A stretch of DNA of 64,000 nucleotides from Candidatus Wildermuthbacteria bacterium (GCA_016186115.1 JACPMK010000002.1:8983-72982), one strand, 5' to 3'; positions 5,190 to 52,103 are shown, counted from the stretch's first letter. Numbers and translations: made by a program. Notes: a model not told the origin generated them from the sequence alone.

Positions 5190-6425
5190 ATGCTCGACAT
5201 TAAATTCATTCGGGAAAATCCAGAAAAAGTAAAAGACGGGATTGCAAAAAAGGGAGCAAGACCAGATTTGGTTGACGCGGTGCTGGAATTGGATAAAAAA
5301 AGGCGGGGATATCTTCAGAAAGTGGAGGAATTAAAAGCCCGTCAGAACAAATTGGGAAAAGATCATGTCGAAGAGGCAAAAGAAATAAAAAACCAAATTA
5401 AGGAATTGGCGCCAGAGTTGGAAAGTATTGAAAAAGAACTCCATGAAACGATTTTGCGATTGCCCAACTTGCCTTTTGAAGATGTTCCGGTTGGAGACGA
5501 AAGCAAGAGCGTAGTATTGCGAGAGGCGGGGGAAAAGCCCAATTTTGATTTTCAATCAAAGGATTATATGGAGCTCGGTGAGTCCTTGGATTTGATTGAT
5601 GTAAAACGGGCTGGGAAGGTTGCCGGAAGCCGTTTCGGCTATCTCAAAAGAGAGGCAGCCTTAATCGAGTTTGCTTTAATGAAACTTGCTTTCGATGCGT
5701 TGACGAAAGAAGGTTTTATCCCAGTTGTTCCGCCAGTGATGCTGAAAAGCCAGATGGCTCGCGGGATGGGCTATCTGGAGCAGACCGATAAAGAAGAAGC
5801 ATACTATTTGCCACAGGATGATTTGTATCTGGCGGGAACTGCTGAACAGCCCTTAGGCACTCTTCATGCGGATGAAATTTTTGATGAGCAGGAGTTGCCC
5901 CGCAGGTATGCTGGGTTTTCAACCTGTTTTCGAAGGGAAGCCGGATCTTATGGGAAAGACACAAAAGGAATATTCAGAGTGCATCAGTTTGATAAAATAG
6001 AGATGTTTAGTTACGCAAAGCCCGAGGATTCAAAAAAAGAGCACGAGTTTTTATTGGGCCTTCAGGAAAAATTTATGAAGCAGCTTGAACTGCCTTACCA
6101 CGTGGTGCTCATCGCTTCTGGAGATTTGGGGAACCCAGCTGCCAAAAAATATGATATTGAAACTTGGTTGCCTTCGGAGGGGAGATACCGGGAGACCCAT
6201 TCCACTTCGAATTGCACTGATTATCAAGCGAGACGTTTGAACATCCGTTATCGCAAAAAGGACGGAGGGATCGAATTCGTCCATACCTTAAATGGTACTG
6301 TCTTTGCCATTGGCAGAATGCTGATTATGATAATGGAAAATTGCCAACAAAAGGATGGGAGTATAGCAATTCCCAAAGTTTTGCAAAAATATATAGGAAA
6401 GAAAAAAATCGAAAGGCCGGTCTAG
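5190..6425 (+). CDS. serS: seryl-tRNA synthetase
   Basis: 411 aa. N-terminal coiled-coil arm (MLDIKFIRENPE...), class II core (FRREAGS, TLNGT). Starts 2 nt after the lysS stop. Confidence 0.92.
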   Translation: MLDIKFIRENPEKVKDGIAKKGARPDLVDAVLELDKKRRGYLQKVEELKARQNKLGKDHVEEAKEIKNQIKELAPELESIEKELHETILRLPNLPFEDVPVGDESKSVVLREAGEKPNFDFQSKDYMELGESLDLIDVKRAGKVAGSRFGYLKREAALIEFALMKLAFDALTKEGFIPVVPPVMLKSQMARGMGYLEQTDKEEAYYLPQDDLYLAGTAEQPLGTLHADEIFDEQELPRRYAGFSTCFRREAGSYGKDTKGIFRVHQFDKIEMFSYAKPEDSKKEHEFLLGLQEKFMKQLELPYHVVLIASGDLGNPAAKKYDIETWLPSEGRYRETHSTSNCTDYQARRLNIRYRKKDGGIEFVHTLNGTVFAIGRMLIMIMENCQQKDGSIAIPKVLQKYIGKKKIERPV

Positions 6426-17136: not shown

Positions 17137-19065
17137 ATGGCAAAAGTATTGGGAATTGATTTGGGCACATCAATATCAAAGATGGCAACTATTGTCGAAG
17201 GAGAACCGAAATGCATTGAAAGTCGGGAAGGTTCGATTTTGATTCCTTCCGTGGTTGCGATCTCAAAAAATGGCGAGCGGGTGGTGGGAATATTAGCAAA
17301 ACGTCAGGCCATTACAAATCCAAAGAATACCATTCATTCGGTTAAGCGATTTATTGGCCGGCGCTATTCCGACCCCGAGGTTCAAAAAGAATTGAAGATA
17401 TTGCCCTATGAGACCAGAGAAAGATCCGATAAAAGCGTAGAAATAAAGATGGATGAGAAATGGTACACGCCCATTGAAATTTCGGCAATGATTCTTCAGA
17501 AAATTAAACTCGATGCAGAAGAGAAATTGGGCGAGAAGATAACAAATGTCGTGATTACCTGTCCCGCAAATTTCGATGACTCCCAAAGAAAGGCAACAAA
17601 AACAGCAGGAGAGATCGCCGGTTTTAATGTTTTGAGAATTATCAACGAGCCAACCGCCGCGGCTCTTGCGTATGGCTTGGGCAAGAAAAAATCAGAGAAG
17701 GTTGCCGTGTACGACTTTGGAGGAGGAACATTTGACGTAACCATTCTTGACGTTGCTCCAGATACCGTGGAAGTTCTCGCAACGGGCGGAGAAGCGCACT
17801 TGGGAGGGGACGATTTCGATCAGCGAATTATTAATTGGATTATCGAGGAATTCAAGAAAGAACAGGGCATTGATTTGTCGGGTGATCCTCTTGCCTTGCA
17901 ACGTCTCAAGGAGGCGGCCGAGCGGGCGAAGATTGAATTATCTTCCGCGATGGAAACAGAGATTAATTTGCCTTTCATTAGTTCTGATGCGGCAGGGCCA
18001 AAACATTTGTATTACAAGATTACGAGGGCGCAGTTTGAACATATGATCCGCGATTTAGTAGAGAGGTCGGTTGAAAGAACAGCAAAAACATTGCAGGAAG
18101 CCCAACTCTCAAAAGATCAAGTCAACGAAATTGTGTTGGTAGGCGGAACTACCATTATTCCGGCAGTTCGTGAAGCAGTTAAAAACTTATTTGGAAAAGA
18201 ACCAAATAAAACCATCAATCCTGAAGAGGTGGTGGCGATGGGAGCTTCTATTGAAGCAGAGATTTTGACTGCCCAAAAAGAAGGGAGGGCTCCCGAAGGA
18301 GATATCAAAAGCGTGTTGCTTTTGGATGTATTGCCATTGTCATTAGGGATTGAAACACTCGGGGGAGTGAATACAATTATGATTCCCAAGAATACTACGA
18401 TTCCCGCATCCAAGACACAGGTTTTCTCAACTGCTGCAGACAACCAAACGTCGGTAGAAGTGAACGCATTGCAAGGAGAAAGGGCGATGGCAAAGGATAG
18501 CCGTTCTCTTGGAAAATTTATTCTTGATGGGATTATGTCGGCTCCCCGCGGGACACCCCAAGTTGAAGTTACATTTGATATTGACGCGAATGGATTGCTT
18601 ACGGTTAGCGCAAAAGACAAGGCAACCGGAAAATCTCAATCAGTCAGGATTGAGGGATCGGTTGGGTTGTCAAAAGAAGAAATTGAGCGGATGAAAAAAG
18701 ATGCAGAGATGTATGCGGCAGAAGATCAGACGAAGCGCGAATTGGCAGAAGCGAGAAATGCCGCAGAGAATTTGATTTATGTGACCGAAAAAATGTTGCG
18801 GGAGAATGGCGAAAAGATTCCCGCAGACATCAAGCAAGAAATCGAGGGGAAAATCAAGAGTTTGAAAGGGGTAAAGGATGGTGATAATATAGAGGATATC
18901 CGGAAAGCGACTCAAGAACTTTCCCAGACGGCGCAAAAAGCTGGTTCTGCGGTATATCAATCTCAAAAAGAGGGAGGGGAGAATTCTCAAGGGTCAGAAA
19001 ATCCAGGTCAGGGAGATCAGGATGGCGGAGCGAATCCGGAGGAAGGTGAGTACAAAGAAAAATAA
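17137..19065 (+). CDS. dnaK: chaperone DnaK (Hsp70)
   Basis: 642 aa. Hsp70 signatures GIDLGTS, DFGGGTFD and VLVGGTTIIPAV. Confidence 0.97.
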   Translation: MAKVLGIDLGTSISKMATIVEGEPKCIESREGSILIPSVVAISKNGERVVGILAKRQAITNPKNTIHSVKRFIGRRYSDPEVQKELKILPYETRERSDKSVEIKMDEKWYTPIEISAMILQKIKLDAEEKLGEKITNVVITCPANFDDSQRKATKTAGEIAGFNVLRIINEPTAAALAYGLGKKKSEKVAVYDFGGGTFDVTILDVAPDTVEVLATGGEAHLGGDDFDQRIINWIIEEFKKEQGIDLSGDPLALQRLKEAAERAKIELSSAMETEINLPFISSDAAGPKHLYYKITRAQFEHMIRDLVERSVERTAKTLQEAQLSKDQVNEIVLVGGTTIIPAVREAVKNLFGKEPNKTINPEEVVAMGASIEAEILTAQKEGRAPEGDIKSVLLLDVLPLSLGIETLGGVNTIMIPKNTTIPASKTQVFSTAADNQTSVEVNALQGERAMAKDSRSLGKFILDGIMSAPRGTPQVEVTFDIDANGLLTVSAKDKATGKSQSVRIEGSVGLSKEEIERMKKDAEMYAAEDQTKRELAEARNAAENLIYVTEKMLRENGEKIPADIKQEIEGKIKSLKGVKDGDNIEDIRKATQELSQTAQKAGSAVYQSQKEGGENSQGSENPGQGDQDGGANPEEGEYKEK

Positions 19066-19083
19066 ATTGCTACGCCACACGTT

Positions 19084-20208
19084 ATGAAGGACTATTATAG
19101 AATTCTTGGAGTGTCGAAAGACGCTTCCGAAGAAGACATTAAAAGCGCGTACCGTAAATTGGCTCACAAATATCATCCCGACAAGGGAGGGGATGGGGAG
19201 CATTTTAAAGAAATCAACGAGGCGTACCATATTCTTTCTGATCGGGACAAACGCGCTCAATATGATCGTTTTGGCAGGGTGTTCGAAGGAGGGGAAGCAG
19301 GCGGAGCCCAAGGGCCCGGCTTTGGCGGTTTTCGATGGGCATGGGGAAGACCGGCCGCAGGAGCTGGCGCAGATGAAGAGAACATTCCCGAAGGGTTTGG
19401 TTTCGACGCACAGGATTTGGGCGATATTTTTGAAGAATTTTTCGGGGGGGGCGCTGCTCAAAAAACTGTCAGCCCGAAACAGGGCAAGGATATTGAAGTT
19501 GAAATAGAGATTCCTCTTGAGGCAGTTTTGAAGGGTCAGGAAGAAACCTTGGCGCTGCATAAATTTATTAAATGTGAGCGATGCCAAGGGGTGGGAGCGG
19601 AGCCGGGCACACAGGTGAAGGAATGTTTTTCTTGCCGGGGCACAGGAGAAGTTCAGCATATCAAGCGCACAGTCTTCGGTTCTTTTACAAGGGTAGCTCC
19701 TTGTCCTGAATGCGGGGGAGATGGGTTGCGGGCAGAGAAAGTATGTAATGTGTGCAAAGGAGAAGGACGCGTCAAAGGGACGGAAGAATGTAAGGTAGTG
19801 ATTCCTCTGGGCGTGGATAGTCATCAGATTCTTAAAATTGATAAAAGGGGAGACGCAGGGCGGAAAAAGGGTCCGAGCGGGGATTTATATCTTAAGATTT
19901 TTATAAAACCCCACTCTATCTTTGAAAGAAAGGGAGACAATCTTTATCTTGATATTTCTATCCCCTTTTCGCGAGCAGCATTGGGAGGAGAGGTTGAGGT
20001 CCCTACATTGGAGGGCACTGTAATTCTTTTGAAAATTCCATCCGGCACCGAATCGGGAAAGGTTCTTCGAGTTGCAGAAAAGGGCCTGCCTCATTTTGGC
20101 GGATGGGGAAGAGGGCATCTCTTTGTGCATTTGCATATCGAGACGCCAAAGAAAATTACAAAAGAGCAAAAAGCGCTTCTCGAAAAACTCCAGAAGGAGG
20201 GGTTGTAA
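19084..20208 (+). CDS. dnaJ: co-chaperone DnaJ
   Basis: 374 aa. J domain with HPD (KYHPDKGG), G/F-rich linker, four CxxCxGxG zinc-finger repeats. Confidence 0.95.
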
Positions 20209-20267: not shown

Positions 20268-20327
20268 GCCCCGCTAGCTCAATTGGCAGATCCGCCCGCT
20301 TGCGGGCGGACTTTTAAGCCGTTGGTT
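20268..20327 (+). pseudogene. tRNA-Lys-derived 5' fragment (copy A) with a GC hairpin replacing the D-stem 3' strand and the anticodon-stem 5' strand
   Basis: GCCCCGC TA GCTC AATTGGCA GA is identical to the intact tRNA-Lys. Then a 20-nt hairpin TCCGCCCG-CTTG-CGGGCGGA, then CTTTTAAGCCGTTGGTT. It stops at the variable loop, 1 nt before the GIY-YIG ATG, with no T arm or 3' acceptor strand. Confidence 0.7.
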
Positions 20328-20328
20328 T

Positions 20329-20589
20329 ATGAAGTACACTGTATACGTAGTCAGGAACAGGGAACGAAACAAAATATACATTGGATACACGAGCAATCTT
20401 ATAAAAAGATTAGCAAGACACAATAAAGAATTACCCGGTAAGAAAAGTTCATTCACAAGTAAGATGAACGGCCACTGGGAAGTCGCGTATTCGGAGGATC
20501 ACAGTACCATAGAAGAAGCAATGGCAAGAGAAAAGTATTTGAAAAGTTATCGAGGTAGAGCGTTTATAAAGAAAATTATCGGACAGTAG
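20329..20589 (+). CDS. small GIY-YIG nuclease-family protein (UPF0213/YhbQ-like)
   Basis: 86 aa. YVVRN..KIYIGYTSNLIKRLARH (GIY-YIG and Arg) plus a downstream Glu (EEAMAREKYLK). No SD; the ATG abuts the tRNA-like fragment. Confidence 0.75.
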   Translation: MKYTVYVVRNRERNKIYIGYTSNLIKRLARHNKELPGKKSSFTSKMNGHWEVAYSEDHSTIEEAMAREKYLKSYRGRAFIKKIIGQ

Positions 20590-20593
20590 TAAT

Positions 20594-20666
20594 GCCCCGC
20601 TAGCTCAATTGGCAGAGCATCGGCCTTTTAAGCCGTTGGTTGCGCGTTCGAGTCGCGCGCGGGGCA
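20594..20666 (+). tRNA. tRNA-Lys (anticodon UUU)
   Basis: Manual cloverleaf. Acceptor GCCCCGC/GCGGGGC; D arm GCTC-AATTGGCA-GAGC; anticodon arm TCGGC-CTTTTAA-GCCGT; variable loop TGGTT; T arm GCGCG-TTCGAGT-CGCGC; discriminator A. CCA is not encoded. Confidence 0.9.
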
Positions 20667-20673
20667 CTCATCA

Positions 20674-20751
20674 TAGCTCAATTGGCAGATCCGCCCGCTT
20701 GCGGGCGGACTTTTAAGCCGTTGGTTGCGCGTTCGAGTCGCGCGCGGGGCA
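20674..20751 (+). pseudogene. tRNA-Lys-derived copy C (hairpin variant) lacking the 5' acceptor strand
   Basis: Positions 20674-20726 are identical to 20275-20327 (a 53-nt direct repeat including the GC hairpin). An intact T arm and 3' acceptor GCGGGGC-A follow. Preceded by CTCATCA instead of GCCCCGC. Confidence 0.7.
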
Positions 20752-20870
20752 CCCTTCGACTCCGCTCAAGGTAAACTTCTACAAGACATGCTTAGCCTGT
20801 CTATTCTATTTGACGGATGGGGTTGGTCTGATGTAAGTTAAAGTAACCTATCAAAAAGGGGGGACAAAAG

Positions 20871-21077
20871 ATGTATCCCACAGCCGTAGAGAGAGATTTT
20901 AGAGTTCTTGAGAAAGCTGCGCACAGTAGCAAAATTTCTGTGCAAGAGGCAAGTGGGGCATTGATCTGTCATGCCCATCGTAGGGCTGGTGGGGATGTGG
21001 ACGAATCAATCCTCGCCCTCGAGGGATTGGGATTGATCAAGAGGGAGGGGAATACTTTGGTGCTCAATGGAAAATAG
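20871..21077 (+). CDS. small hypothetical protein (possible winged-helix)
   Basis: 68 aa. AAAAGGGGGG SD upstream and a terminator downstream. The ending LALEGLGLIKREGNTLVLNGK resembles a wHTH wing. Confidence 0.5.
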   Translation: MYPTAVERDFRVLEKAAHSSKISVQEASGALICHAHRRAGGDVDESILALEGLGLIKREGNTLVLNGK

Positions 21078-21102
21078 TTGAGATCTTTGGAGAGTGTTTC
21101 GG

Positions 21103-21139
21103 GGGCTGGCCACAAATAGTGACCAGCCCTCTTTTTATT
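21103..21139 (+). terminator. intrinsic terminator
   Basis: GGGCTGG/CCAGCCC stem followed by TCTTTTTATT. Confidence 0.65.
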
Positions 21140-21264
21140 GAAGAGCATACTATTTGTTCAGCTTGCAAAGGTTGTTGGGATACGATAATCTGTACGCTGA
21201 CTGCTCAACTAATCCTTGGAAGGTCGCAGGAGCAGAGAATTACTTAATAAGATATGTAGTGTTC

Positions 21265-23076
21265 ATGACGTACTCGTCCATACTTCGTATGGCCATGCGA
21301 ATTTTTCTTGTGGCCGTGATCGTTATTTCCACGTTCGTAACTTCGATTGTCGGCTCTTATTTGAGAGCTCGAACAGATCAAAATGAAGAAAATACTGTGC
21401 ATGCGCAATCAAGCGTTAATGTGTGGTGGCCTGTTCCCAATGTAAAAGTAGGGGGCGTGCAGCCATTCAAAGCAATGATTTCTGGGCAGGATGTCAATTC
21501 CTATGATATGTATTGGCAGGTAGATGGAGATCGGTTGAACTCGATGCATACCAGCTATACTGATTATCCGCATAAGGAAGCGATGGTTGATCTCTCTGGC
21601 TGGAATTGGCGGGGAGCAGGGCCCTATACCATTGCGTTTATCGCAAAGGATCGGGCAAATAACACTATTGCCCAGAGTTCTTTTGTCATCTACACTTCTT
21701 CTCCAACTCCGAAAAAAAGTTATGTTCTGACATCCTTGTGGCCAGTTGATGGTTCGCGTATCGTGGGATCGCAACTTTTTAAGGCCGTTATCGAAGATAA
21801 GTCCATCGAAGAATATCATATATATTGGCAGGTGGATGGTGACCGGTTGAATCCCATGGAGAACAGCTATACGGGTTTTCCCCACAAAGAAACAGTGATA
21901 GAGCTTTCGGGCTGGACATGGCGAGGTGAGGGACCATATCGGATAACTTTTGTCGCCAAAGATAACAGCCAGAACGAGCTTGCGAGAAAGGATATGGCGA
22001 TTTATGTGCCGAGATCGATACCAACTCCAACGCCAGTTCCTGTTTCTGTGTCTATGCCAGTAGCTACTTCCATATTCTCGCCGACCCCAACCGTAGTCCC
22101 AACCCCGATTCAAATCTCGATTCCAACTCCTTCTTTGGCTTCTGTTTCAAGCCAACCTTCTTCTGTGTCAGAAAATCTTTCTTTGCCTATTGCTCAAGCG
22201 CAATCTTCCTCTGCTTTCTATGTGGATCCAAATTCTTCTGCAAAAAAACAAGCTGATATGTGGAGATGGACGAGGCCAGACGATGCGCGTTTGATGAATC
22301 TTATAGCATCGCAACCAGTTGCAAAATGGGTGGGGGATTGGAATAGCGATATTCGCAAAGAGGCGCAGGAATACACAAACAAGGCAACGGAAACAAATAC
22401 CATTCCAATCTTCGCGGTGTACAATGTTCCGGGAAGGGATTGTAGTAACTATTCTGCAGGAGGCGCGCAAACTGCTGAAAAGTACAAGAATTGGATTAAT
22501 GCTTTTGCTTCGGGAATCGGTGATCAAAAAGCCACCGTGATTCTTGAGCCAGATGCCTTGGCTTTGATGGATTGTTTGTCGTCCCAGGCAAAACAGGTGC
22601 GATTCGACCTGATTGCTTATGCGGTGAGCAAGCTCAAGGCAAACGGAAAGACAAAGGTATATGTTGATGCAGGCCATGCGAAGTGGATTGCATCAACAGA
22701 AATGGCCGAGCGTTTGCAGAAAGCGGGCATTCAGCAGGCAGATGGATTTGCTTTGAATGTTTCAAATTTCTACAGTAATGAAGAAAACGTGAGATACGGA
22801 GAAGAGGTTTCGCGGAATACCGGCGGGAAACACTTTGTGATTGACTCGAGCAGAAATGGAGTTGGGGCGTTGGCTGATTTGGCATGGTGCAATCCTCAAG
22901 GCCGGGCTCTTGGAACCCGACCAACCGTCAATACCGGCCATTCATTATTGGATGCTTATCTCTGGGTTAAGGTACCGGGAGAGTCCGACGGCCCTTGCAA
23001 CGGAGGGCCTTCGGCAGGCCAGTGGTGGCCGGAGTACGCGCTTGATCTTGCCCGCAAGTACATTACTAGAGATTGA
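21265..23076 (+). CDS. secreted/anchored glycoside hydrolase family 6 (GH6) protein with two N-terminal tandem beta-sandwich-like repeats
   Basis: GH6 signatures AVYNVPGRDC and TVILEPDALA. N-terminal TM anchor, two ~95-aa repeats (..YWQVDGDRLN..PHKE..LSGW.WRG.GPY.I.F.AKD..), Pro/Thr/Ser linker. The ORF is open from TTG 21154; I place the start at ATG 21265, which is uncertain. Confidence 0.85.
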   Translation: MTYSSILRMAMRIFLVAVIVISTFVTSIVGSYLRARTDQNEENTVHAQSSVNVWWPVPNVKVGGVQPFKAMISGQDVNSYDMYWQVDGDRLNSMHTSYTDYPHKEAMVDLSGWNWRGAGPYTIAFIAKDRANNTIAQSSFVIYTSSPTPKKSYVLTSLWPVDGSRIVGSQLFKAVIEDKSIEEYHIYWQVDGDRLNPMENSYTGFPHKETVIELSGWTWRGEGPYRITFVAKDNSQNELARKDMAIYVPRSIPTPTPVPVSVSMPVATSIFSPTPTVVPTPIQISIPTPSLASVSSQPSSVSENLSLPIAQAQSSSAFYVDPNSSAKKQADMWRWTRPDDARLMNLIASQPVAKWVGDWNSDIRKEAQEYTNKATETNTIPIFAVYNVPGRDCSNYSAGGAQTAEKYKNWINAFASGIGDQKATVILEPDALALMDCLSSQAKQVRFDLIAYAVSKLKANGKTKVYVDAGHAKWIASTEMAERLQKAGIQQADGFALNVSNFYSNEENVRYGEEVSRNTGGKHFVIDSSRNGVGALADLAWCNPQGRALGTRPTVNTGHSLLDAYLWVKVPGESDGPCNGGPSAGQWWPEYALDLARKYITRD

Positions 23077-24571
23077 GATCGGGCGTATCGTAACGCAGGC
23101 GATAGACCGAAAGAGTCAAGCCCGGAGAAAACTGACGGGTTTCCAGTCGCTCAAAGCGCGTATCGAAATACATCTTGATCTTTTCTTTGTAGCCCTGATC
23201 GTAGCTAAGCAAAAGCCATGCCTTCTGATGATGATCGCCTAGTTGGCGCACTTGATCGGGTAAGGCGGATTCATCGAACGGAGGAATTGGCCCTCTCTGA
23301 TAGCGATCCCAGATAGGCAGGGTCGCTATTTGAGTTGGGCCGTCGTAGTAATAAAGTATTGGATAAATGGTAAAAGGCGCAGAAAGAATAATGATGTCTT
23401 GGGGAGCGGCATTCTGTAGAAGATACGCGCTTACTGTTTTGTAATCCTCCCGTTCAGGATTTCTCGCATTAGTCACTTCGAATAGAAGAGACCCAATCAT
23501 GAGGGCAATAAGAGTGATCTGTAAAAATGTTGCGATTTTGGAAGGGTATACAAAAAAGAGCCACGAAATCAGGAGATACAGCGACGGAACGGTAAAAATA
23601 AGATATCGGCTTAAAAACGCCGGTTGCAGAGTGATGCTGACGAGAAAGAGGAGAAGGACAGGAACAAAGAGAGTAACTAAAAAGTATGTAGCTTCCAAAG
23701 AAATTTTTCGATTTTTTTGAATGGCAAGAAATCCAAACAGCGTGGTCATGGGCCAGAGGGACAGGATGATCGTGTTGAAATGTGTAGTTTGAAATCCAAA
23801 CAAAAATTGAGAAAAAGCGTTGAGAAGATCAATGCTTGTGGGAGAGGCGAGATGGGGCACGGCATTTGGTGAGGATTCGTTCATAACGATATAGAATATC
23901 CATGGGCTGAATACGATGCCAAGAAGCAGAGACACAATAAAAAAATTGCGAATGGCGGCAAAAGAAATTTGCTTGCGTTGAAAAAAAGCGAATGCCCACT
24001 GGCTGCAGAGTAAAAGAAAGTAGAGGTAGTGAGTGAAAATTCCAAAAAGAGAAACAAAAAAATATCCTGTCCATACCAGCCATCCTGTTTGATTCCGAAG
24101 AATCTTGAGGAAGAAATAATGGGAAAGTATCGCAAGAAGAGTGAGAAGCGTGTACATTCGAATCTCGTTGCCGAACCAATTCATAAATGGCGAGACCGCA
24201 AAAAGAATTGCTGCATATAATCCAACCGAGGAATTATAAGCAGATCTTCCCAAGAGAAAAAGAGCGGGAATTCCCAAGGCGAAAAAGATAAGCGACAGCA
24301 TCCTTGCTTGTTCAAGACCTTCTCCCATAAGGATTTGCCAATAATGCAAAATCAGATGGTAGAGAGGCACGTGAACATCTTCAGAAACAATCTGAAGAAT
24401 TTTGAGAGGGCTGTGATATGCCTGCCATAAACTTTGAGCTTCATCGAGCCGAAGGCCTTGCTGGGAGAAAAGAAAAAAAGAGAGCCCTGCTACGAAGAGG
24501 ATGAGCAGGAGAAGAATTTCTCCGATGGGCATCGCGTCTTGTTCAAAAGAAGGGCGTTGCTGGTTGTTCAT
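23066..24571 (-). CDS. GT-C fold membrane glycosyltransferase (GT39/PMT_2-like), third paralog
   Basis: 501 aa, polytopic. First-loop motif GLRLDEAQSLW. 4-nt overlap with the upstream GT2 stop. Its 3' end overlaps the GH6 3' end by 11 nt (convergent genes). Confidence 0.65.
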   Translation of the reverse strand: MNNQQRPSFEQDAMPIGEILLLLILFVAGLSFFLFSQQGLRLDEAQSLWQAYHSPLKILQIVSEDVHVPLYHLILHYWQILMGEGLEQARMLSLIFFALGIPALFLLGRSAYNSSVGLYAAILFAVSPFMNWFGNEIRMYTLLTLLAILSHYFFLKILRNQTGWLVWTGYFFVSLFGIFTHYLYFLLLCSQWAFAFFQRKQISFAAIRNFFIVSLLLGIVFSPWIFYIVMNESSPNAVPHLASPTSIDLLNAFSQFLFGFQTTHFNTIILSLWPMTTLFGFLAIQKNRKISLEATYFLVTLFVPVLLLFLVSITLQPAFLSRYLIFTVPSLYLLISWLFFVYPSKIATFLQITLIALMIGSLLFEVTNARNPEREDYKTVSAYLLQNAAPQDIIILSAPFTIYPILYYYDGPTQIATLPIWDRYQRGPIPPFDESALPDQVRQLGDHHQKAWLLLSYDQGYKEKIKMYFDTRFERLETRQFSPGLTLSVYRLRYDTPDLNL

Positions 24572-26196
24572 AGAATATGTTCTTTTTGCGGCTGCGGGGA
24601 AAGTTCAATGGATTCTTCTCTGGGAATCTCCGCGACAGGAAGAGAAACGTGTTCGGGAGCCGCTGCTTTAATAAATGGGGTAAAAAGCGCAATATAAATA
24701 AATGCCCATGCGGTATTGGTTATGAAAGAAGCACTGATTCCCTCTCGGAGAATTCCTACTCCTATCCCAATAACCACAAGCGCAATATACGCCATATGGG
24801 GTACTACAAGGTAGAGAAAATTTCCATAAATTTGGGTTTTCGAAGTGATCACAAATCCTCCTCTTTTTTTAAAAAGATATTCAAGCAATGCTTGCACATG
24901 GATACTCCATGAACTAAGGGAAAATGCCAGTGCACGGAAGGTGTATGAAAAATTACTTGCATTTTGGAGATTGTAAAGCGTAAGAAAGATATATGGAATA
25001 AATATAATCGCCAAACTCACCGTAGAGATGACAAATGGCACGAGCCCCGTATAAAAGTAGAAAATGGGAATGAGGGCACTTAAAAGAAAGGCAACTCCTG
25101 AAAAATAGAAGGTTGCCGATGCGAGGTATTGAATTTTTTGCGCAAGAGTGAGTCCTTTTTGCAAAAGAGGATTACGCTTGAAAAGGAGTTCGATACTCCC
25201 CCTTGCCCATCGCAGTTGCTGATTATAATAGGAAAGAAAGTCCTGCGGAGCCAACCCTTCCGCAAGAACCTTAGGGATATAGACCGATTTCCAGCCGTGT
25301 TCGTGGATGAGCATTCCGGTAACGACATCTTCTGCGACATTATTGATAACCATTCCCCCTATTTCCTCGATTGCCGTTCTGCGGAGTACCATGTTGGTCC
25401 CGCACATGATGGCCGAGTTCTGGCGGTTTTTCCCCCGGCAGATTGCTCCGAAAAATAGTTCCTGCTGTTCCCAGGCAGCCCCGGTCACGAGATTTTGTTT
25501 ATGATTTTTGTAGTATTGGGGCGTTTGCACAAAGCCAACTTTCCAATCTGCAAAATAGGGCATTGTGACCTTGAGAAAATCAACATGGGGCACATGGTCA
25601 GCATCGAACACCGCAATGAAGTTGCTCGTTGTTTCTTTTAGGGCGTGGTTGATGTTTCCCGCTTTGGCTCCCCCCGGAATTTTTCTGGTAATACAAGCGA
25701 CACCGTATCGAAGCGCCAATTCTTCGATTTCTCTCCAATTTTCTTTCCCGGCGACATACCCGTCATTTAGGATGAAGATCTTAAAACGCGGGTAATGCAT
25801 CGCGAGTGCTCCTTTGAGAGTTTCCTCTACAACGCCAGCCGGTTCTCCTGCCACCGGAATAAAAACATCAACCTTTGGGAAGAATAATTTTGTGATCGGC
25901 TGATCGGTCTCATCTTTGATTCCCCACACCGTATAGATAAAAGTGAATGTTTGCCAAAGATAAAATATTTGTCCCGTAATAAGAATGGCGTATAAATAGA
26001 TGTTTCCTGTTTCAAACCAAAACGCAAGCAACCCAAAATGGAGCAACGCCAAAGTGCCGTTGACAACCAAAAGCACGACCGATGTCCGTGCTTTTAGGGA
26101 TTTTGTTGCGTTGTTTGGTTGAGAGAAAGATTGTCTTGCCATATGGAGGAAAATATATTGGGAAGAGCTTTGTGATAGAGCGCAATGCCGAACCAT
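24568..26196 (-). CDS. processive family-2 glycosyltransferase, cellulose synthase (BcsA/CelA)-like, no PilZ domain
   Basis: GT2 motifs DADHVP, QTPQYY, CGTNMVLRR and QQLRWARGSIE (QxxRW), with TM helices on both sides. Start uncertain (ATG at 26196 or 26142). Overlaps the GH8 gene's end. Confidence 0.85.
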   Translation of the reverse strand: MVRHCALSQSSSQYIFLHMARQSFSQPNNATKSLKARTSVVLLVVNGTLALLHFGLLAFWFETGNIYLYAILITGQIFYLWQTFTFIYTVWGIKDETDQPITKLFFPKVDVFIPVAGEPAGVVEETLKGALAMHYPRFKIFILNDGYVAGKENWREIEELALRYGVACITRKIPGGAKAGNINHALKETTSNFIAVFDADHVPHVDFLKVTMPYFADWKVGFVQTPQYYKNHKQNLVTGAAWEQQELFFGAICRGKNRQNSAIMCGTNMVLRRTAIEEIGGMVINNVAEDVVTGMLIHEHGWKSVYIPKVLAEGLAPQDFLSYYNQQLRWARGSIELLFKRNPLLQKGLTLAQKIQYLASATFYFSGVAFLLSALIPIFYFYTGLVPFVISTVSLAIIFIPYIFLTLYNLQNASNFSYTFRALAFSLSSWSIHVQALLEYLFKKRGGFVITSKTQIYGNFLYLVVPHMAYIALVVIGIGVGILREGISASFITNTAWAFIYIALFTPFIKAAAPEHVSLPVAEIPREESIELSPQPQKEHIL

Positions 26197-27356
26197 GCCC
26201 AGTTGTCATCATAATAAGAGAGCGTGCCTTTCCATGTTTCACTGTCTGGGTTGTACAGAGTTTTCAATTTTCGTTCGTAGATTATTTTTGCCTGTTCGGG
26301 TTTTTGCACGAGAAAATATCCTATGTTTGCGCCGTAGAATGCCGGGGTCTCGTAAGGCGATACAATTTTCCCGTCATGGGTATAGGATGTAGCAAGAAAG
26401 CCATTCTGTTCCCACTGTTGATTCAAGAATACTAATTTCGTTAGGATATCTTTTGCTTTCTGGTCTTGGAACCATTCCCAATCCAGTGCAATTCTCCATG
26501 GAATTCTCATGGCATCAAAACTGTAATGAGTCGTAAGTTGTGACGTAGAAGGGGAGAGGATGTTTCCGGTTTGCCGGTCGATCAGAATCCAATCCGGAGG
26601 AAGAGAAGAGCTTGTTTGACTATTGAGTGGAGATTGCATGCTTTGCTCGAGCACGTCATAAGCACTATTCACGAGCGCCATCCAGTCGTGTTCCTGATCT
26701 ACAATGCTGAAGATCCGGTAGGCATAAGGCGCAAAGTAGGAAGGATTTACCACAATGGTTGGTTCCAGCTTATCTTTCTCGGTATCATTTGAGACGAGAA
26801 AAGGTTTTTCTTGAATCGTCACCACTTCTTTTTCCCAGATGTCAGAGATAATGGGTTTTGCATCTTGGAGATACTTGGGATCAAGCCATCGCGCATAGGC
26901 AAAGAGCAGAGAAAGAGCAATATCGGTGTCTCCATCGGTGGCAGTATTTTGCCCGCCGGTTTCAGTAATAATTCCATACGATCCATCTGCTCGCTTTCCG
27001 AAAAGCCAAGAAAATAGGTGATCTTCCTCCCGCTGGAGGTTATCTTTGGTCCATTGCCAGCTTCGATCAAATGTCTCTTTGTCATCCTCCCATACGGCAC
27101 GGAGCATGGTATAGCTTTGTCCTTCGGAAGTGGTGATGTTGCCCCTCGATTTGTCGAGTGTTCTCCATGTTCCCGGCTCCAAGTATTCTTGTTTGTATGC
27201 CCGCCATAAAGAATTCAGCATGAGCTTTTCTGAAAAAATCAGTGGCGCCTCCCTCTCTCTGATCTGTATGAAGACAATAGAAGCGGCTCCAATAATTCCT
27301 GCGCAGAGTAAAAATAATAATACGACCTTTTGTTTGGACGTCATAGAAATATTCAC
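26094..27356 (-). CDS. glycoside hydrolase family 8 endoglucanase (BcsZ-like)
   Basis: 420 aa. Signal/TM N-terminus and GH8 landmarks TSEGQSYTMLRAVW and ATDGDTDIALSLLFA. Confidence 0.85.
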   Translation of the reverse strand: MNISMTSKQKVVLLFLLCAGIIGAASIVFIQIREREAPLIFSEKLMLNSLWRAYKQEYLEPGTWRTLDKSRGNITTSEGQSYTMLRAVWEDDKETFDRSWQWTKDNLQREEDHLFSWLFGKRADGSYGIITETGGQNTATDGDTDIALSLLFAYARWLDPKYLQDAKPIISDIWEKEVVTIQEKPFLVSNDTEKDKLEPTIVVNPSYFAPYAYRIFSIVDQEHDWMALVNSAYDVLEQSMQSPLNSQTSSSLPPDWILIDRQTGNILSPSTSQLTTHYSFDAMRIPWRIALDWEWFQDQKAKDILTKLVFLNQQWEQNGFLATSYTHDGKIVSPYETPAFYGANIGYFLVQKPEQAKIIYERKLKTLYNPDSETWKGTLSYYDDNWAWFGIALYHKALPNIFSSIWQDNLSLNQTTQQNP

Positions 27357-27431
27357 TTGATAAATTTTATGTCCTTAACAAAGGACGTTTCTTGACAATG
27401 TGAACTTACAACAGAGCTATTGCGCGAGCTA

Positions 27432-27460
27432 TTGACAAAATCAAAATTATATGCTAATAT
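27432..27460 (+). promoter_or_regulatory. sigma70-like promoter (TTGACA-17-TAATAT) preceded by a direct repeat GAGCTATTG-CGC-GAGCTATTG
   Basis: TTGACA at 27432-27437, a 17-nt spacer, TAATAT at 27455-27460. The 9-nt direct repeats lie at 27414-27422 and 27426-27434, and the second overlaps the -35 box. Confidence 0.6.
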
Positions 27461-27466
27461 TGAGGT

Positions 27467-27928
27467 GTTTCATACAGTTGAGCAGATCTTTTCATAAGTT
27501 AAGACGCGTCAATGAGTGCCCGACCGAGCATTAAGTGAAGAATTTAGTGCTTGGCGGGGACTGATTGAACATAAAAAAGAAGGGGGTACGCCATGGCTAG
27601 CAATTCTAAACCGGTAAAATATTTCGTGGTGAAGGGCATGGTGGCCTTTACCAGACAGGAGGCGCTCGGTCTTAAACAGAAGTAGAGCGCCGCATGCCGG
27701 TGGCACGCCGGCAGAGGTGGAGACCTTTCTGAGTCGCACTTGCTCGGATCGCCTGAAATGTCTCCAATCTCTTAAGTCCATGACATGAGTCGTGCGTTTA
27801 AGAGATTGACAACAGCTCTTTATAAAACTTTTCCATAGCGGCGAAATGGACATTAATGCAGAACCATTCAGAACAATTTCTTTTAGGAATGTATGTACCA
27901 AACAGTTAGTGTCCAGTTCGCCGCTATG
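27467..27928 (+). ncRNA. candidate structured RNA or long 5' leader (class unknown)
   Basis: Six helices were read by eye:
- 27524-27537 with 27737-27747, enclosing about 200 nt.
- 27628-27637 with 27643-27652.
- 27661-27667 with 27685-27691.
- 27695-27700 with 27708-27713.
- 27765-27775 with 27798-27808.
- 27835-27856 with 27906-27927, a 22-nt arm pair with 20/22 complementarity that ends 1 nt before the SD.
The only long ORF here (minus strand, 130 aa) looks non-coding. Confidence 0.4.
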
Positions 27929-27940
27929 AAAGGAGAAATC

Positions 27941-28183
27941 ATGCTTTTTTATATTATTTTTATCATGGTGCTGGTTGCGATCGCGTTTGTGCTATGGCTA
28001 GTTTTGAGAGCTTTGGATCGGAAGGAAGAAATTCAAGACAAGAGTTCTCAAAGCGTCAGCCCAGAGGATCTTATCGGGATTCTTTCTGGGCCTAATGATC
28101 CAAGGCACAACGCAGCGTATCCTGCGTTGTGGAATTATCTGGAGAATCACGAAGAGGACGATGATCACCACGCCATACATTAA
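27941..28183 (+). CDS. small membrane protein with an acidic/His-rich tail, unknown function
   Basis: 80 aa counted from the ATG at 27941, preceded by AAAGGAG. One TM (MLFYIIFIMVLVAIAFVLWLVL). C-terminus NHEEDDDHHAIH. Confidence 0.6.
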   Translation: MLFYIIFIMVLVAIAFVLWLVLRALDRKEEIQDKSSQSVSPEDLIGILSGPNDPRHNAAYPALWNYLENHEEDDDHHAIH

Positions 28184-28369
28184 GGGAGAGCAGCAATTGT
28201 TCGTTGCTCTCCCGCCCATCAAAGTTCGGCACATTCGACAAGCTCAGAGGCGGATTTTGATGGGGAAAGTTATTTCAAGAACGATGTGAGGACTTGCACA
28301 AGTCCTTAATTATATGGTAAATTCATATAAGTGGCTAGATTCTAATGAAAGTAAACGAAGGAGGAGAAA

Positions 28370-28633
28370 ATGGAATACAGATTGAGTCCCCGGCGCCTTA
28401 ACTGGCGAGAGCCCGGGGATCCAGAAACCGTCGCGCACGAGTGCGATGGAAAAGATCACTATCTCGTCGATCTGTCTCGTTGCGTGTTCCCTGTGGCAGT
28501 ACGATTGGGAGAGGGACATGGGGTGGTGCAAATCCGAAGAGAGGGGGCATGCCCTAATCCTGTTAGATGCGATGGAGCGTTGGAAGATCTCATCGCACAA
28601 AATGACGCAGAAATGACAATTAAATATAACTAG
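28370..28633 (+). CDS. hypothetical protein (orphan)
   Basis: 87 aa. AAGGAGGAG SD. GC-richer than its surroundings. No motif recognised. Confidence 0.5.
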   Translation: MEYRLSPRRLNWREPGDPETVAHECDGKDHYLVDLSRCVFPVAVRLGEGHGVVQIRREGACPNPVRCDGALEDLIAQNDAEMTIKYN

Positions 28634-28910
28634 TCGAACTTAACAGGGAGGCGCATGTCCAAACCGACTACGCCTCCCACCACAATTTTGATTCTTCTTT
28701 TTCATAGGGGCTTTTGGGGATGATTTTCCGCTTGTTGAAGACAATTTGCTCTTTTCAATCTCCCTCCTTTATTCTATTTCAACAAGCACCTAAGAGCCCC
28801 GCTGAAAAGGAAGAAAAAGAAAACCCTGAAATGGTTTTCTTTTTTGCTGGACAAGGCATAGAAAATGTGCAATACTACAGTTAGATTCAGTTTCTGAAGG
28901 AGGGGTTCCA

Positions 28911-29396
28911 ATGAGTCAGCTGACGCTTAGGTTGCCTAGTGCCTCCATACATTTCATGTGTCCTCTTACCGATGTTCGCTGCGTGAAGATTCACGGGAGC
29001 ACACTATTTCTACCTGGCGACTGGGAGAAGGGTAAAAGAGGTGTAATTATTCACTGTGATTTTCCTGGAGTCGCCTTCAATAGACCAGAAGATCTCGAAC
29101 GGCTATTCAGCGGGCGCTCGTTTGAGATAGAGATCGATCTCGACAGGATTTCTCCGGTTATTTCAATCCGTCAACAGGTATGGCGCCGGGCATTTTCGGC
29201 AATGTGGCTTACCCGCTTTTTCGAAGGAGAGAAGGTTGGTGGAAATCCCATCTGGAAGCATCGGGGGCCAGCTTGGCTCCTTTTGTGCACCGATGACCTT
29301 CGGAGAGGACGGGTCCACAGGGCGGGCCATTCGGAGGAATATGGCATTGAGTCCAAGACAATCAATGAAGTAATAATGCAAAGGGCTGCTTCGTAA
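28911..29396 (+). CDS. hypothetical protein (orphan)
   Basis: 161 aa. GAAGGAGGGG SD. Upstream terminator (GAAAACC/GGTTTTC + TTTTTT) and downstream terminator. No motif recognised. Confidence 0.55.
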   Translation: MSQLTLRLPSASIHFMCPLTDVRCVKIHGSTLFLPGDWEKGKRGVIIHCDFPGVAFNRPEDLERLFSGRSFEIEIDLDRISPVISIRQQVWRRAFSAMWLTRFFEGEKVGGNPIWKHRGPAWLLLCTDDLRRGRVHRAGHSEEYGIESKTINEVIMQRAAS

Positions 29397-29415
29397 GAAG
29401 CGGCCCTCCTTTATT
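29383..29415 (+). terminator. intrinsic terminator
   Basis: GGGCTGCTTC-GTAA-GAAGCGGCCC stem-loop (one G-T pair) followed by TCCTTTATT. The stop codon lies in the loop. Confidence 0.7.
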
Positions 29416-29455
29416 GTGAGTGAAAAATAAGTGTGATATAGTGTATTCGTATTTT

Positions 29456-30664
29456 ATGAAAAAGATTGCACAGATTATTTTTATTGGTATCGGAGCTGTC
29501 GGGTTGGTCGTGCTTGGTTTTGGAGCTGGGTTTTCTGTCGGCAAAGAGCAGGGGACTGTGATTCCTATTGAGGGCGCAATCAATTTGACTCAAGACAAAC
29601 CCGCAGCAGCTGACTTTTCTCTTTTTTGGCGGGCATGGGGTGTAATACAGAATCAATTTGCTGACCGGAATGAGTTGAACCAGCAGAACATGATGTACGG
29701 CGCGATTTCTGGAATGGTGGAGAGTTTGGGGGATGAGTATACTGTGTTTATGACTCCGGATGAGTCAAAGAAGTTTTTGGAAGACGTTTCCGGTACTTTT
29801 GAAGGAGTCGGGATGGAGGTTGGCATGCGCGACGGGCAACTAAAAGTCATTGCTCCTCTCGAGAAATCCCCGGCTCAAAAAGCAGGGATCATGGCGGGAG
29901 ATACAATCGTAAACATTGACGATACTTCAACAGAAAACATATCTTTGGATCAGGCAATTTTCCTGATTCGCGGCCCCAAAGGAACGAACGTGCGGTTGTT
30001 GATTATGCGACAGGGTTTCAATCAGCCAAAGGAATTCGTTATCAAACGTGATGTTATTGAGGTCCCTTCTCTCAAATGGGAACTGAAAGATAAGGTTGCC
30101 TATATTCATCTGTATCAATTTTCTGATCGGGTAGTGCAAGATTTCCGTAAGGCGGCTTCCCAGATTCTTTCTTCGGGAGCGGATCGGATTGTGCTTGATT
30201 TGAGAAATAATCCGGGAGGATATTTGCAGGCCGCTCAAGACATTGCAGGATGGTTCTTGAAAGACGGTCAAACCGTTGTGATAGAGGATTTCAAAGCCGA
30301 AGGGAAGCAGGAGCCCTATGCGGTAGAAGGCGATGGTGCATTTTTGCATTATCCTATGGTAGTATTAATGAATCAGGGATCGGCCTCGGCATCAGAGATT
30401 CTCGCGGGAGCCATTCGGGACAACCGCGGAATTATGCTGATTGGCGAGCAATCGTTTGGCAAAGGATCTGTGCAGGAGCTTGTCAAATTGCAGGATAGTT
30501 CTACGATAAAAGTAACAGTTGCGCGCTGGCTTACTCCCAAAGGCAATCAGATTGACGGCAAGGGTCTGAAACCGGATATTGAAGTAAAGATCACCGAAGA
30601 GGACAGTGTACAAGGGAAAGATCCGCAGCTCGAGAAAGCTCTTGAAGTTGTGAAAGATTTATGA
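29456..30664 (+). CDS. ctpA: carboxy-terminal processing protease (S41, CtpA/Prc-like) with a PDZ domain
   Basis: N-terminal TM, PDZ (GIMAGDTIVNIDD), S41 catalytic region GSASASEILAGA and a downstream Lys. I prefer the ATG at 29456 (MKKIAQIIF...). Confidence 0.88.
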   Translation: MKKIAQIIFIGIGAVGLVVLGFGAGFSVGKEQGTVIPIEGAINLTQDKPAAADFSLFWRAWGVIQNQFADRNELNQQNMMYGAISGMVESLGDEYTVFMTPDESKKFLEDVSGTFEGVGMEVGMRDGQLKVIAPLEKSPAQKAGIMAGDTIVNIDDTSTENISLDQAIFLIRGPKGTNVRLLIMRQGFNQPKEFVIKRDVIEVPSLKWELKDKVAYIHLYQFSDRVVQDFRKAASQILSSGADRIVLDLRNNPGGYLQAAQDIAGWFLKDGQTVVIEDFKAEGKQEPYAVEGDGAFLHYPMVVLMNQGSASASEILAGAIRDNRGIMLIGEQSFGKGSVQELVKLQDSSTIKVTVARWLTPKGNQIDGKGLKPDIEVKITEEDSVQGKDPQLEKALEVVKDL

Positions 30665-33292: not shown

Positions 33293-33320
33293 TTGAAATG
33301 TAGGGGTAAAACGCTATAAT
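33293..33320 (+). promoter_or_regulatory. sigma70-like promoter (TTGAAA-16-TATAAT)
   Basis: TTGAAA at 33293-33298 and TATAAT at 33315-33320. AAAGGAGGTGAGG SD before the TTG start at 33362. Confidence 0.55.
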
Positions 33321-33361
33321 AGAAAAAGAATTCTCGAGTGTAAAGAGAAAGGAGGTGAGGA

Positions 33362-34216
33362 TTGGGTTCAGTAATAGTAAATACAGAGGAAGCGGTGGCG
33401 GCATACCTTCTTCAGGGAGGTGTCGGATTCCTTCCCTGGAGAGAGGGCTTATGGGCCATGGTCTGCGTTGAAGAGGCGGCAGAACGCATGGCTCAGATCA
33501 AGGGCAGAGAAGGGAAGAAACCCTTTTTCTACCTTGCGGTCGGGCCAGCAAAAGAACTTTGGACCTATCCCGGAATTGCGCATTTTGGGAATAATCTCCA
33601 CAAGGTGATTGTGGAGATCTGCGGGCGGGTCACGCCCATCGCGGTGCTTCTTCCCGCAGATTCGCGACTCCACAAGATTTCTCCTCGTACATGTGGTAAG
33701 ATAGAAATTTCTCAACGAGGGGAAAAGAAGACAGTACCTACAGTAGGATTTATGTTCGCGGGGAGTTCTCCGCCGGAAGAACAATTAGGCCATGGCGATA
33801 CCTTTGCTCGATTAAGAGCTCTGCTTCCTGCCGAAGTACGTATTCTTGGGACGTCGGCTAACAAGAGCGTAGATCCCTATACGAACGGATCTGGTCATTA
33901 CAATTTCCCGGATTTGGAATTTGATTTCCACGAGGATGAGGTATGTTTTTTGGTAAGACCATCTCACGCCCTGGCAGATAAACTACCCGTATCAGCATCA
34001 GTGGTTTATCTACGGGAGAGTGGATTTCCTTTTCGGGCAGTAGAAGGACATATTGTCCGGATCGGTTCAACTCCCGAAAACAAATTGCGGCAAATTTTAG
34101 AAGATGCGGGAGTTCGATCGATCCAACGAGCTCTTTCCTTTCGCGAAGTGCACGCTTATGATTACGCAGCACGCGAGCAAGCATGCAAGGATGCGATGCA
34201 ATATCCAAGGGCCTAG
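33362..34216 (+). CDS. divergent YrdC/Sua5 (threonylcarbamoyl-AMP synthase)-like domain protein
   Basis: 284 aa. YLLQGGVGFLPWREGLWAMVC...AAERMAQIKGREGKKPFFYLAV, then PIAVLLP and ILGTSANKS, follow the YrdC-domain order. However, the usual PTDT-type substrate loop reads PWRE. GC-richer than its neighbours. Confidence 0.45.
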   Translation: MGSVIVNTEEAVAAYLLQGGVGFLPWREGLWAMVCVEEAAERMAQIKGREGKKPFFYLAVGPAKELWTYPGIAHFGNNLHKVIVEICGRVTPIAVLLPADSRLHKISPRTCGKIEISQRGEKKTVPTVGFMFAGSSPPEEQLGHGDTFARLRALLPAEVRILGTSANKSVDPYTNGSGHYNFPDLEFDFHEDEVCFLVRPSHALADKLPVSASVVYLRESGFPFRAVEGHIVRIGSTPENKLRQILEDAGVRSIQRALSFREVHAYDYAAREQACKDAMQYPRA

Positions 34217-34441
34217 CTGACAATTATGTACCAGCTAGGCCCGTTTCATTCACTCTATGAGTGAGGGAAGTTTAACTTCCTTCATACTTTCATACTGACT
34301 TTGCAGATTTTCTTTAAGGATGCCTATGGGGTAGTAAAAGTTAGTCGAGCATTATTCAATAGGCAGCGGGGTTGACAGAAGAGAGTTAGATGCGCAGTGA
34401 GTAGGGGAGAGGTATAATGAAGTGATCTATGGAAAAAGCAA

Positions 34442-51512: not shown

Positions 51513-51564
51513 ATCTTCAAAACCAGTATACCCTTCTCATCCAAAAACATCAACAACATATAAA

Positions 51565-51610
51565 GATCAAAAGGCGGGCTGATGCGTGATCAGCCCGCCG
51601 TATTTTTTTC
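51565..51610. terminator. bidirectional hairpin terminator
   Basis: 11-bp stem GGCGGGCTGAT/ATCAGCCCGCC (51573-51599). Flanked by AAAA on the 5' side and GTATTTTTTT on the 3' side. Lies between the Zn-ribbon gene's stop and the aspS start. Confidence 0.65.
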
Positions 51611-51625
51611 GAAAGGCGAAAAGAG

Positions 51626-52045: not shown

Positions 52046-52103
52046 CGTTTTCCTCCCTTCCTGCCCATATTCTTATCCAATATTGCCAGGGTAGTCAAGT
52101 GCA

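Follow-up and report, generated by a model that had tools for sequence, protein, structure and literature searches.

A proposed leader of ORF80 and the question it raises

The question raised by this locus is what occupies the 584 nt between a GH8 gene and the small + strand open reading frame (ORF) ORF80 (27941-28183) in a genome of Candidatus Wildermuthbacteria. The stretch analysed, called the window below and supplying all coordinates, is a 64-kb segment (GCA_016186115.1, JACPMK010000002.1:8983-72982) of a metagenome-assembled genome from this lineage of the Candidate Phyla Radiation (CPR), or Patescibacteria. An earlier inspection of the DNA, the sequence-only reading, had described here a promoter followed by about 470 nt of nested helices that end at the Shine-Dalgarno (SD) sequence of a small membrane-protein gene. 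Folding predictions and comparison with the other genes of the window point to a lineage-specific structured 5' leader that is predicted to occlude the ribosome-binding site of ORF80, a reading to which we give a probability of roughly 0.4. The small genomes of CPR bacteria rarely tolerate 0.5-1.4 kb of non-protein sequence and, to our knowledge, almost no cis-regulatory RNAs are annotated in them. If the leader does gate ORF80, it would be among the very few RNA-based regulatory elements proposed for CPR bacteria, and it would tie an orphan small membrane protein to a divergent cellulose synthase/GH8 operon. The element is known from a single genome and is therefore not generalisable, and its present value is that of a flagged target for groundwater CPR transcriptomics.

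The features on which this reading is built are the following.

27432-27460, + strand: sigma-70-type promoter, TTGACA-17-(TG)cTAATAT, a consensus match, with the transcription start site placed near 27467
27467-27940, + strand: putative structured leader of about 475 nt, from that start site to the start of ORF80, fold z = -6.67
27480-27493, + strand: 5'-proximal segment AGCAGAUCUUUUC, pairing with the SD/AUG region 27932-27946 in the minimum free energy (MFE) structure
27509-27568, + strand: hairpin H1, 25 bp, pair probability about 1.0
27624-27713, + strand: hairpins H2 (27624-27655), H3 (27659-27693) and H4 (27695-27713), from fold prediction
27718-27766, + strand: hairpin H5 (27728-27748), with an optional enclosing 12-nt helix, 27718-27729 with 27755-27766
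27765-27808, + strand: hairpin H6, 12 + 6 bp, from pair probabilities
27828-27933, + strand: hairpin H7, about 100 nt, with basal CUUUU (27828-32) pairing with AAAGG (27929-33)
27929-27935, + strand: SD of ORF80, AAAGGAG, seen in the sequence, with the ATG at 27941 after a 5-nt spacing
27941-28183, + strand: ORF80, an orphan with gene-like codon log-likelihood ratios of 0.17 and 0.14

Folding of the leader

The + strand of 27466-27945 folds with an MFE of -178 kcal/mol against -132 +/- 6.9 for its dinucleotide shuffles (z = -6.67), none of 100 shuffles being as stable, and the minus strand of the same segment reaches -151.5 (z = -5.94). When the whole window was scanned in 150-nt windows (background z = -0.36, standard deviation 1.3), the 13 windows of 27450-28850 gave a mean z of -3.1 on the + strand vs -1.7 on the minus strand, and this region has the lowest 1-kb running-mean z of the 64 kb, being its most structured kilobase. 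The segment is also GC-richer than its surroundings, as had been noticed, with a GC content of 0.50-0.53 at 27500-27800 vs 0.33-0.38 in the flanks.

The extent and the architecture of the fold differ from those first described. The structured region had been thought to end at the SD of ORF80; the excess runs about 900 nt further, to about 28850. Instead of a nested multi-helix fold, the predicted architecture is a string of about 20 long local hairpins, often perfect and with many G-U pairs on the + strand. The helix proposed to close the fold (27524-27537 with 27737-27747) has a pair probability of 0.00 in the ensemble, and bases 27524-27536 belong to the local hairpin H1. On the other hand, the hairpin proposed at 27765-27808 is recovered as H6 with pair probabilities of 0.82-1.0, and the inverted repeat upstream of the SD is indeed present, only longer than the 22 nt assigned to it: it spans 27831-27856 with 27906-27931, 26 nt with 88% complementarity, and these arms of H7 pair with probabilities of about 1.0.

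Predicted occlusion of the ribosome-binding site

At 37 °C the SD of ORF80 has a predicted unpaired probability of 0.15, which becomes 0.22 when the full leader is folded. Among 36 other genes of the window treated identically, the SDs average 0.53 and the lowest value is 0.16; by prediction, the SD of ORF80 is thus the least accessible of the 37 genes tested. Its bases G27932 and G27933 are paired at 0.89 and 0.97, and the bases flanking the AUG at 0.6-0.96. Two partners contribute to this pairing. The base of H7 covers the first half of the SD, with U27829-32 pairing with G27932 and A27931-29 at 0.44-0.57 and C27828 with G27933 at 0.38, so that the U-tract covers only the 5' half of GGAG. 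The segment 27480-27493 pairs with a probability of 0.5-0.64 in its AUG-proximal part and of about 0.25 in its SD part.

No intrinsic terminator was found on the + strand in 27460-28800 and, because none separates the promoter from ORF80, the simplest view of the leader is that it is the 5' untranslated region (UTR) of the ORF80 mRNA. Of the features of a riboswitch-type expression platform, SD sequestration is predicted and a terminator is absent from the leader. In silico, the unpaired probability of the SD is 0.07, 0.08, 0.11, 0.15, 0.22 and 0.32 at 10, 20, 30, 37, 45 and 55 °C, and a thermometer was disfavoured for a groundwater organism, given how gradually the SD opens between 10 °C (0.07) and 37 °C (0.15). 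The sequence-only reading had left the choice between a large cis-regulatory leader, of riboswitch or thermosensor type, and an independent structured RNA; its proposal of a leader that occludes or presents the SD agrees with the strand-biased fold, the lack of a terminator and the most occluded SD of the genes compared, and its riboswitch, thermosensor and independent-RNA variants gain nothing.

A mechanism can be proposed from these predictions. The near-consensus promoter at 27432-60 would start a + strand transcript near 27467, whose first ~475 nt would fold into the stable local hairpins H1-H7 and may include an upstream ORF of 30 codons. In H7, the basal CUUUU would pair with AAAGG of the ORF80 SD, and the remaining SD bases and the start codon would be engaged by transcript nucleotides about +14 to +27. 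Because the ribosome-binding site would be held in structure in these two ways, translation of ORF80 would be low by default, and its activation would need a remodelling of the RNA, be it by 5' processing, by a trans-acting factor or by ribosomes on the upstream ORF. The analysis itself establishes the promoter match, the strand-biased excess of folding energy, the helix probabilities, the low predicted accessibility of the SD, the lack of homologues in the searches made and the location within an insertion. We infer that the RNA is produced, that ORF80 is translated, that occlusion of its SD has a regulatory role and by what means this occlusion would be relieved.

Promoters and a possible operator

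Two further features lie around and inside the leader.

27446-27473, minus strand: weaker divergent promoter-like site, ATGAAA-16-TATAAT, a consensus match only, facing the GH8 operon
27810-27818, minus strand: inverted third copy of the operator-like motif, differing at one position (GAGCTGTTGTCAA vs GAGCTATTGACAA), of marginal significance

The + strand promoter is present as first proposed, with 10 of 12 consensus positions and a TG extended -10. About 20 promoter matches of equal quality occur on both strands of the 64-kb window, mostly in intergenic positions, and sigma-70-like promoters therefore seem to be used by this organism. Equally confirmed is a direct repeat of GAGCTATTG separated by CGC, with exact copies at 27414-27422 and 27426-27434, the second of which overlaps the -35 box by 3 nt. 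These are the only exact copies of GAGCTATTG in the window; since the window has about 14 further 9-mers that recur at a distance of 9-21 nt, the repeat alone is not beyond chance, and it is suggestive only through its position. The inverted copy GAGCTGTTGTCAA sits inside the leader, 385 nt downstream. The -10 TATAAT of the minus-strand site falls in the spacer of the + strand promoter, so that the two form overlapping divergent promoters, both spanned by the direct repeat. Because the promoters overlap and the repeat covers both, its arrangement suggests a possible shared operator, one that might also act on the divergent GH8-cellulose-synthase operon.

Reading frames in and after the leader

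The leader and the DNA downstream hold the following further features.

27593-27685, + strand: ORF30 (MASNSKPVKYFVVKGMVAFTRQEALGLKQK), with SD AGAAGGGGGU 5 nt upstream, called by gene callers on metagenomic contigs
28184-28850, + strand: continued structured RNA with hairpins, ORF87 and a terminator-like hairpin, z = -8.1
28370-28633, + strand: ORF87, with SD GAAGGAGGAG and marginal codon statistics
28911-29406 including its terminator, + strand: ORF161, an orphan with SD GAAGGAGGGG and poor codon statistics

It had been stated that no credible protein gene lies between the promoter and ORF80. For the only long frame, ORF130 on the minus strand (27509-27901), this holds: its codon log-likelihood ratios of -0.03 and -0.12 are non-coding, it has no Pfam or NCBIfam match, and it was rejected as a gene. 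The 30-aa ORF30 on the + strand had been overlooked. Its SD is predicted to be open (unpaired probability 0.81), its codon statistics are ambiguous, hairpins H2 and H3 fall within it, and no match was found in the family libraries searched (Pfam, NCBIfam and others); it may be a small ORF or an upstream ORF.

The ORF80 protein has one N-terminal hydrophobic segment and an acidic C-terminal tail, and gene callers start it at the ATG at 27893, which gives 96 aa. ORF80, ORF87 and ORF161 are co-directional, each has a strong and correctly spaced SD, and an intrinsic terminator follows ORF161 at 29383-29406. The AlphaFold2 model of ORF161 was uninformative (predicted local distance difference test score, pLDDT, 35). 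The excess of structure continues through ORF80 and ORF87, with z = -8.1 for 27940-28920 on the + strand, perfect 10-14-bp hairpins at 28106-28131, 28184-28213 and 28215-28264, and an A/U-rich terminator-like hairpin at 28815-28843.

Elsewhere in the window, the second most structured kilobase is 33300-34300, on both strands (running mean z about -2), and it overlaps a 284-aa ORF with a TTG start (33362-34216) that has only sub-threshold Pfam matches. A 950-nt gap at 51513-52464 on the minus strand has a strong promoter (52405->52376, TTGACA-18-TACAAT) and encodes Cys-rich ORFs with repeated CxxC, of 64 aa (52134-52328) and 139 aa (51626-52045), which are probably zinc-ribbon proteins missed at the 150-aa ORF cutoff. 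As a similar leader this gap was rejected, as it holds Cys-rich small protein genes.

Searches for relatives

The sequence-only reading had found no match to RNase P, tmRNA, SRP, 6S, T-box or cobalamin elements, and the Rfam scan that it called for agrees with it. Against 4227 covariance models of Rfam 15, no family reached the gathering threshold, the sole match of the window being the tRNA-Lys at 20594; at E <= 10 and E <= 5, the region 27200-29500 gave sub-threshold noise, the best score being 24 bits vs gathering thresholds of 40-64. ARAGORN found no tmRNA, and a search of the literature on CPR structured RNAs found nothing relevant.

Related loci were collected as 80 S41-linked and 80 GH8-linked loci of Patescibacteria, 1.43 Mb in total, the former from a contig scan with an S41 alignment and the latter from a metagenome scan with a GH8 alignment; a contig scan with a single S41 protein found nothing. 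Six-frame peptides of 27357-27940 had no match with E < 0.01 in these 160 loci. The intergenic gaps upstream of GH8 or S41 in the relatives mostly have ordinary z-scores. The exception, locus L017, has a ~450-nt ORF-free stretch between tRNA-Ala and S41 (5355-5850 of CAYIVF010000006.1), with a TTGACA-17-TATAAT promoter, a strong intrinsic terminator and a fold z of -4.3. Unmatched in Rfam and similar neither to the window nor to the other loci, it is a separate noncoding RNA (ncRNA) candidate in an equivalent genomic position.

The proteins encoded in the block were equally isolated. Among 1.84 billion representatives, ORF80 had only its self-match judged real; a further match, to a low-complexity protein of 1082 aa in which a 21-aa motif recurs seven times, was considered spurious. 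ORF161 matched only itself among 5.8 billion proteins, and no relatives of ORF87 were found in the family-library, PDB, viral and related-loci searches. None of the three has a match in Pfam, PHROGs, PADLOC or NCBIfam, and ORF87 and ORF161 gave nothing meaningful against the PDB (best E = 0.72, for ORF161). As for a viral origin, two protein scans (ORF87 and ORF161) and one DNA-pattern scan of IMG/VR were empty. A self-BLAST of 27357-29419 found no other copy in the 64-kb window, and by inspection there are no attC cores (RYYYAAC/GTTRRRY) at the hairpin ends; a miniature inverted-repeat transposable element, a repetitive extragenic palindrome and an integron attC element were set aside accordingly. 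As judged by these searches, the element belongs to no known RNA family and is without detectable relatives.

A lineage-specific insertion

The setting of the locus is as follows.

20753-29420, strand not applicable: insertion of about 8.7 kb, specific to this lineage, with tRNA-Lys on one side and the S41 peptidase gene on the other

The GH8 protein (26094-27344, minus strand) is identical to NCBI HYW95_00455, and its gene is the first of a GH8-GT2(BcsA-like)-PMT2 operon that is divergent from ORF80. The insertion is made up of a conserved GH6/PMT2/GT2/GH8 cellulose cassette together with the orphan block that contains the leader. It was recognised as an insertion because the closest genomes covering the site (L010 and L012) have the gene order 633aa-363aa-tRNA-Lys-S41 without it, their tRNA-Lys lying 75-190 nt upstream of S41; in the window, the orthologues of the 633-aa and 363-aa genes lie at 17137-20208 and the tRNA-Lys at 20594. 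The order S41-L9-PyrG is widely conserved among the S41-linked loci. The nearest relatives of the flanking genes are 64% (S41) and 55-58% (GH8) identical in protein sequence, and the cassette recurs in 57 of the 80 GH8 loci, none of which has this leader or these ORFs. A tblastn search for the block as a decayed copy of the genes preceding S41 or GH8 in relatives gave no match, and no tRNA-Lys-derived att repeat was found near 29400, at the distal end of the insertion.

At the proximal end, the tRNA-Lys(UUU) gene (20594-20667) has partial self-copies on either side (20268-20327 and 20674-20752), in both of which a 20-nt GC hairpin (CCGCCCGCTTGCGGGCGG) replaces the 5' strand of the anticodon stem. 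An 86-aa GIY-YIG nuclease ORF (20329-20589; Pfam E = 2e-15) lies between the first copy and the intact tRNA-Lys, and together the copies and this ORF have the appearance of a trace left by a mobile GIY-YIG element or by a recombination event at the tRNA. Near the inner edge of the insertion, the GH6 gene is preceded by a 68-aa ORF without a Pfam match (20871-21077), and strong structure is predicted for the + strand of 21001-21250 (z -4.6 to -5.2).

Weighing the explanations

Several results weigh against a regulatory leader. The segment 27357-29419 found nothing similar in the 160 loci by blastn, nhmmer or tblastn, and a covariance model of 27755-27935 (H6, H7 and the SD) had no match in them; eight Logan metagenomic contigs, which come from runs in two SRA accession series and represent the same organism, are identical but for one single-nucleotide polymorphism at 28716, outside the leader. 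Runs SRR12113383-433 and SRR4343428/30 are from samples with this organism. The structure is equally strong through the ORFs and so is not specific to a leader, and its cause may lie in where the DNA came from and not in regulation. Moreover, long-range pairs are not reliably predicted from thermodynamics over 480 nt, and the orphan ORF80 may not be a real gene. Lack of conservation of the helices in related genomes, named by the sequence-only reading as a result that would speak against it, is indeed what was found, in a comparison that is a weak test, the nearest genomes being 55-64% identical and lacking the whole block; support from covariation is missing because the closest species share only this 55-64% protein identity.

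A serious alternative, if a somewhat unlikely one, is that the ~2-kb orphan block, placed where the horizontally acquired cellulose cassette meets the ancestral tRNA-Lys/S41 site, is relic DNA or has no function: decayed mobile-element or filler sequence, whose palindromes come from DNA-level processes and whose promoter, SD and ORF matches are unselected for the proposed regulation. The block is absent from all relatives, lies inside an insertion of about 8.7 kb beside a tRNA gene accompanied by partial copies of itself and by a GIY-YIG ORF, and has no ORF with a detectable relative, the codon statistics of ORF161 being poor. Its structure is not confined to the UTR, takes the form of long, near-perfect local hairpins in a row and not of a compact multi-junction fold, and is found on the minus strand too (z = -5.9). 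Decay alone, however, does not sit well with a structure excess that is clearly strand-biased (-3.1 vs -1.7) and rich in G-U pairs on the + strand, with a near-consensus promoter directed into the block, or with three consecutive ORFs that have strong, well-spaced SDs and among which ORF80 has gene-like codon usage. The sequence is also unchanged in the eight contigs from the two SRA accession series, and no repeat copies, attC cores or distal tRNA-derived att repeat were found. An independent structured ncRNA of ~470 nt, or one formed by the whole ~1.4-kb transcript and possibly dual-function, with the ORFs incidental or secondary, is a distinctly unlikely explanation. The missing 3'-end signal before ORF80 counts against it, as do the strong SD ahead of each ORF, the local hairpins without predicted long-range junction architecture, the absence of an Rfam family at E <= 10, of a tmRNA and of any homologue, hence of covariation. 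In its favour, the z-scores of -6.7 (27466-27945) and -8.1 (27940-28920) are exceptional, no other part of the window sustains so strong a signal, the interval of 584 nt from GH8 to ORF80 has no credible long ORF, and the unrelated ~450-nt candidate of L017 in the equivalent tRNA-S41 gap suggests that such RNAs may be common there. A more specific form, in which the + strand transcript 27467-28850 (~1.4 kb) is a lineage-specific structured RNA with a function of its own, large or dual-function and of no described class, has little probability; its role might be, for instance, that of a scaffold or of a stability element from which micro-proteins are made as well, and it would have evolved anew or have arrived with the cellulose island.

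The hydrophobic N-terminal helix of ORF80 also brings to mind a type I toxin-antitoxin module, in which ORF80 would be membrane-active, its mRNA would be kept inert by the folded 5' UTR until processed, and an antisense or divergent small RNA would act as antitoxin. The long structured leader, whose 5' end is predicted to pair with the SD/AUG region, and weak minus-strand promoter-like sites at 28337->28309 and 27915->27888 are in line with it, as is a resemblance to the described zorO, dinQ and aapA1 leaders (PMC5397157, PMC5066626, PMC5416894). Yet no minus-strand terminator or clean antisense unit was found in 27400-28800, ORF80 has no paralogous copies in the window and no PADLOC or Pfam match, and more co-directional ORFs follow it. 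Type I toxins are small hydrophobic membrane peptides, typically under 60 aa, and ORF80, with 80-96 aa and a long acidic tail, exceeds that size. We consider such a module improbable and do not claim membership of the class, which is weakly supported given a protein atypically large and no evident antitoxin RNA gene. The structured leader that would occlude the SD of ORF80 remains the preferred reading, and in kind the element is then an ordinary structured 5' leader of an orphan operon in a lineage-specific insertion.

Comparison with known systems

In Escherichia coli, bcsEFG, which includes the gene of the small membrane protein BcsF, lies opposite bcsRQABZC. The present locus likewise has a small single-pass membrane-protein gene divergent from a GH8 (BcsZ-like)/GT2 (BcsA-like) operon, with overlapping promoters. 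Unlike the E. coli case, ORF80 has no match to cellulose-related Pfam families, and the 80 homologous GH8-GT2-PMT2 cassettes of other Patescibacteria lack such a divergent gene or leader. The large ncRNAs of Rfam (OLE, GOLLD, ROOL, HEARO, raiA) and riboswitch or T-box leaders share with the element a size class of 0.5-1.4 kb, a strong folding-energy excess and an intergenic position with a promoter; they differ in being conserved families with multi-junction architecture, whereas ORFs with strong SDs are embedded here.

FourU thermometers such as those of Salmonella agsA and Bacillus subtilis SPbeta blyA (PMC3185406, PMC10586365) resemble H7 in that four U (27829-32) at the base of a hairpin are predicted to pair with the SD region. 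In contrast to them, the U-tract here covers AAAG and so reaches no further than the first G of GGAG; the hairpin, of about 100 nt, is very stable, with an SD opening predicted to go from 0.07 to 0.15 over 10-37 °C; and known thermometers are shorter than the leader by a factor of about 5-10.

Parallels are also offered by the long self-inhibitory 5' UTRs of the type I toxin mRNAs zorO (174-nt UTR), dinQ (+1 transcript) and Helicobacter pylori aapA1 (PMC5397157, PMC5066626, PMC5416894). The leader of ORF80 is about 2-3 times longer than theirs, and ORF80 itself differs in its 80-96 aa and acidic tail, in having no identifiable antitoxin RNA gene, paralogues or homology, and in being followed by more ORFs. 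What they have in common is a long, highly folded leader before a small protein with a hydrophobic helix, and a predicted sequestration of the ribosome-binding site partly by the extreme 5' part of the transcript, so that 5' processing could activate translation. We favour a constitutive occlusion of the ORF80 SD that would be relieved by remodelling of the RNA, a mechanism analogous to that of these self-inhibitory 5' UTRs.

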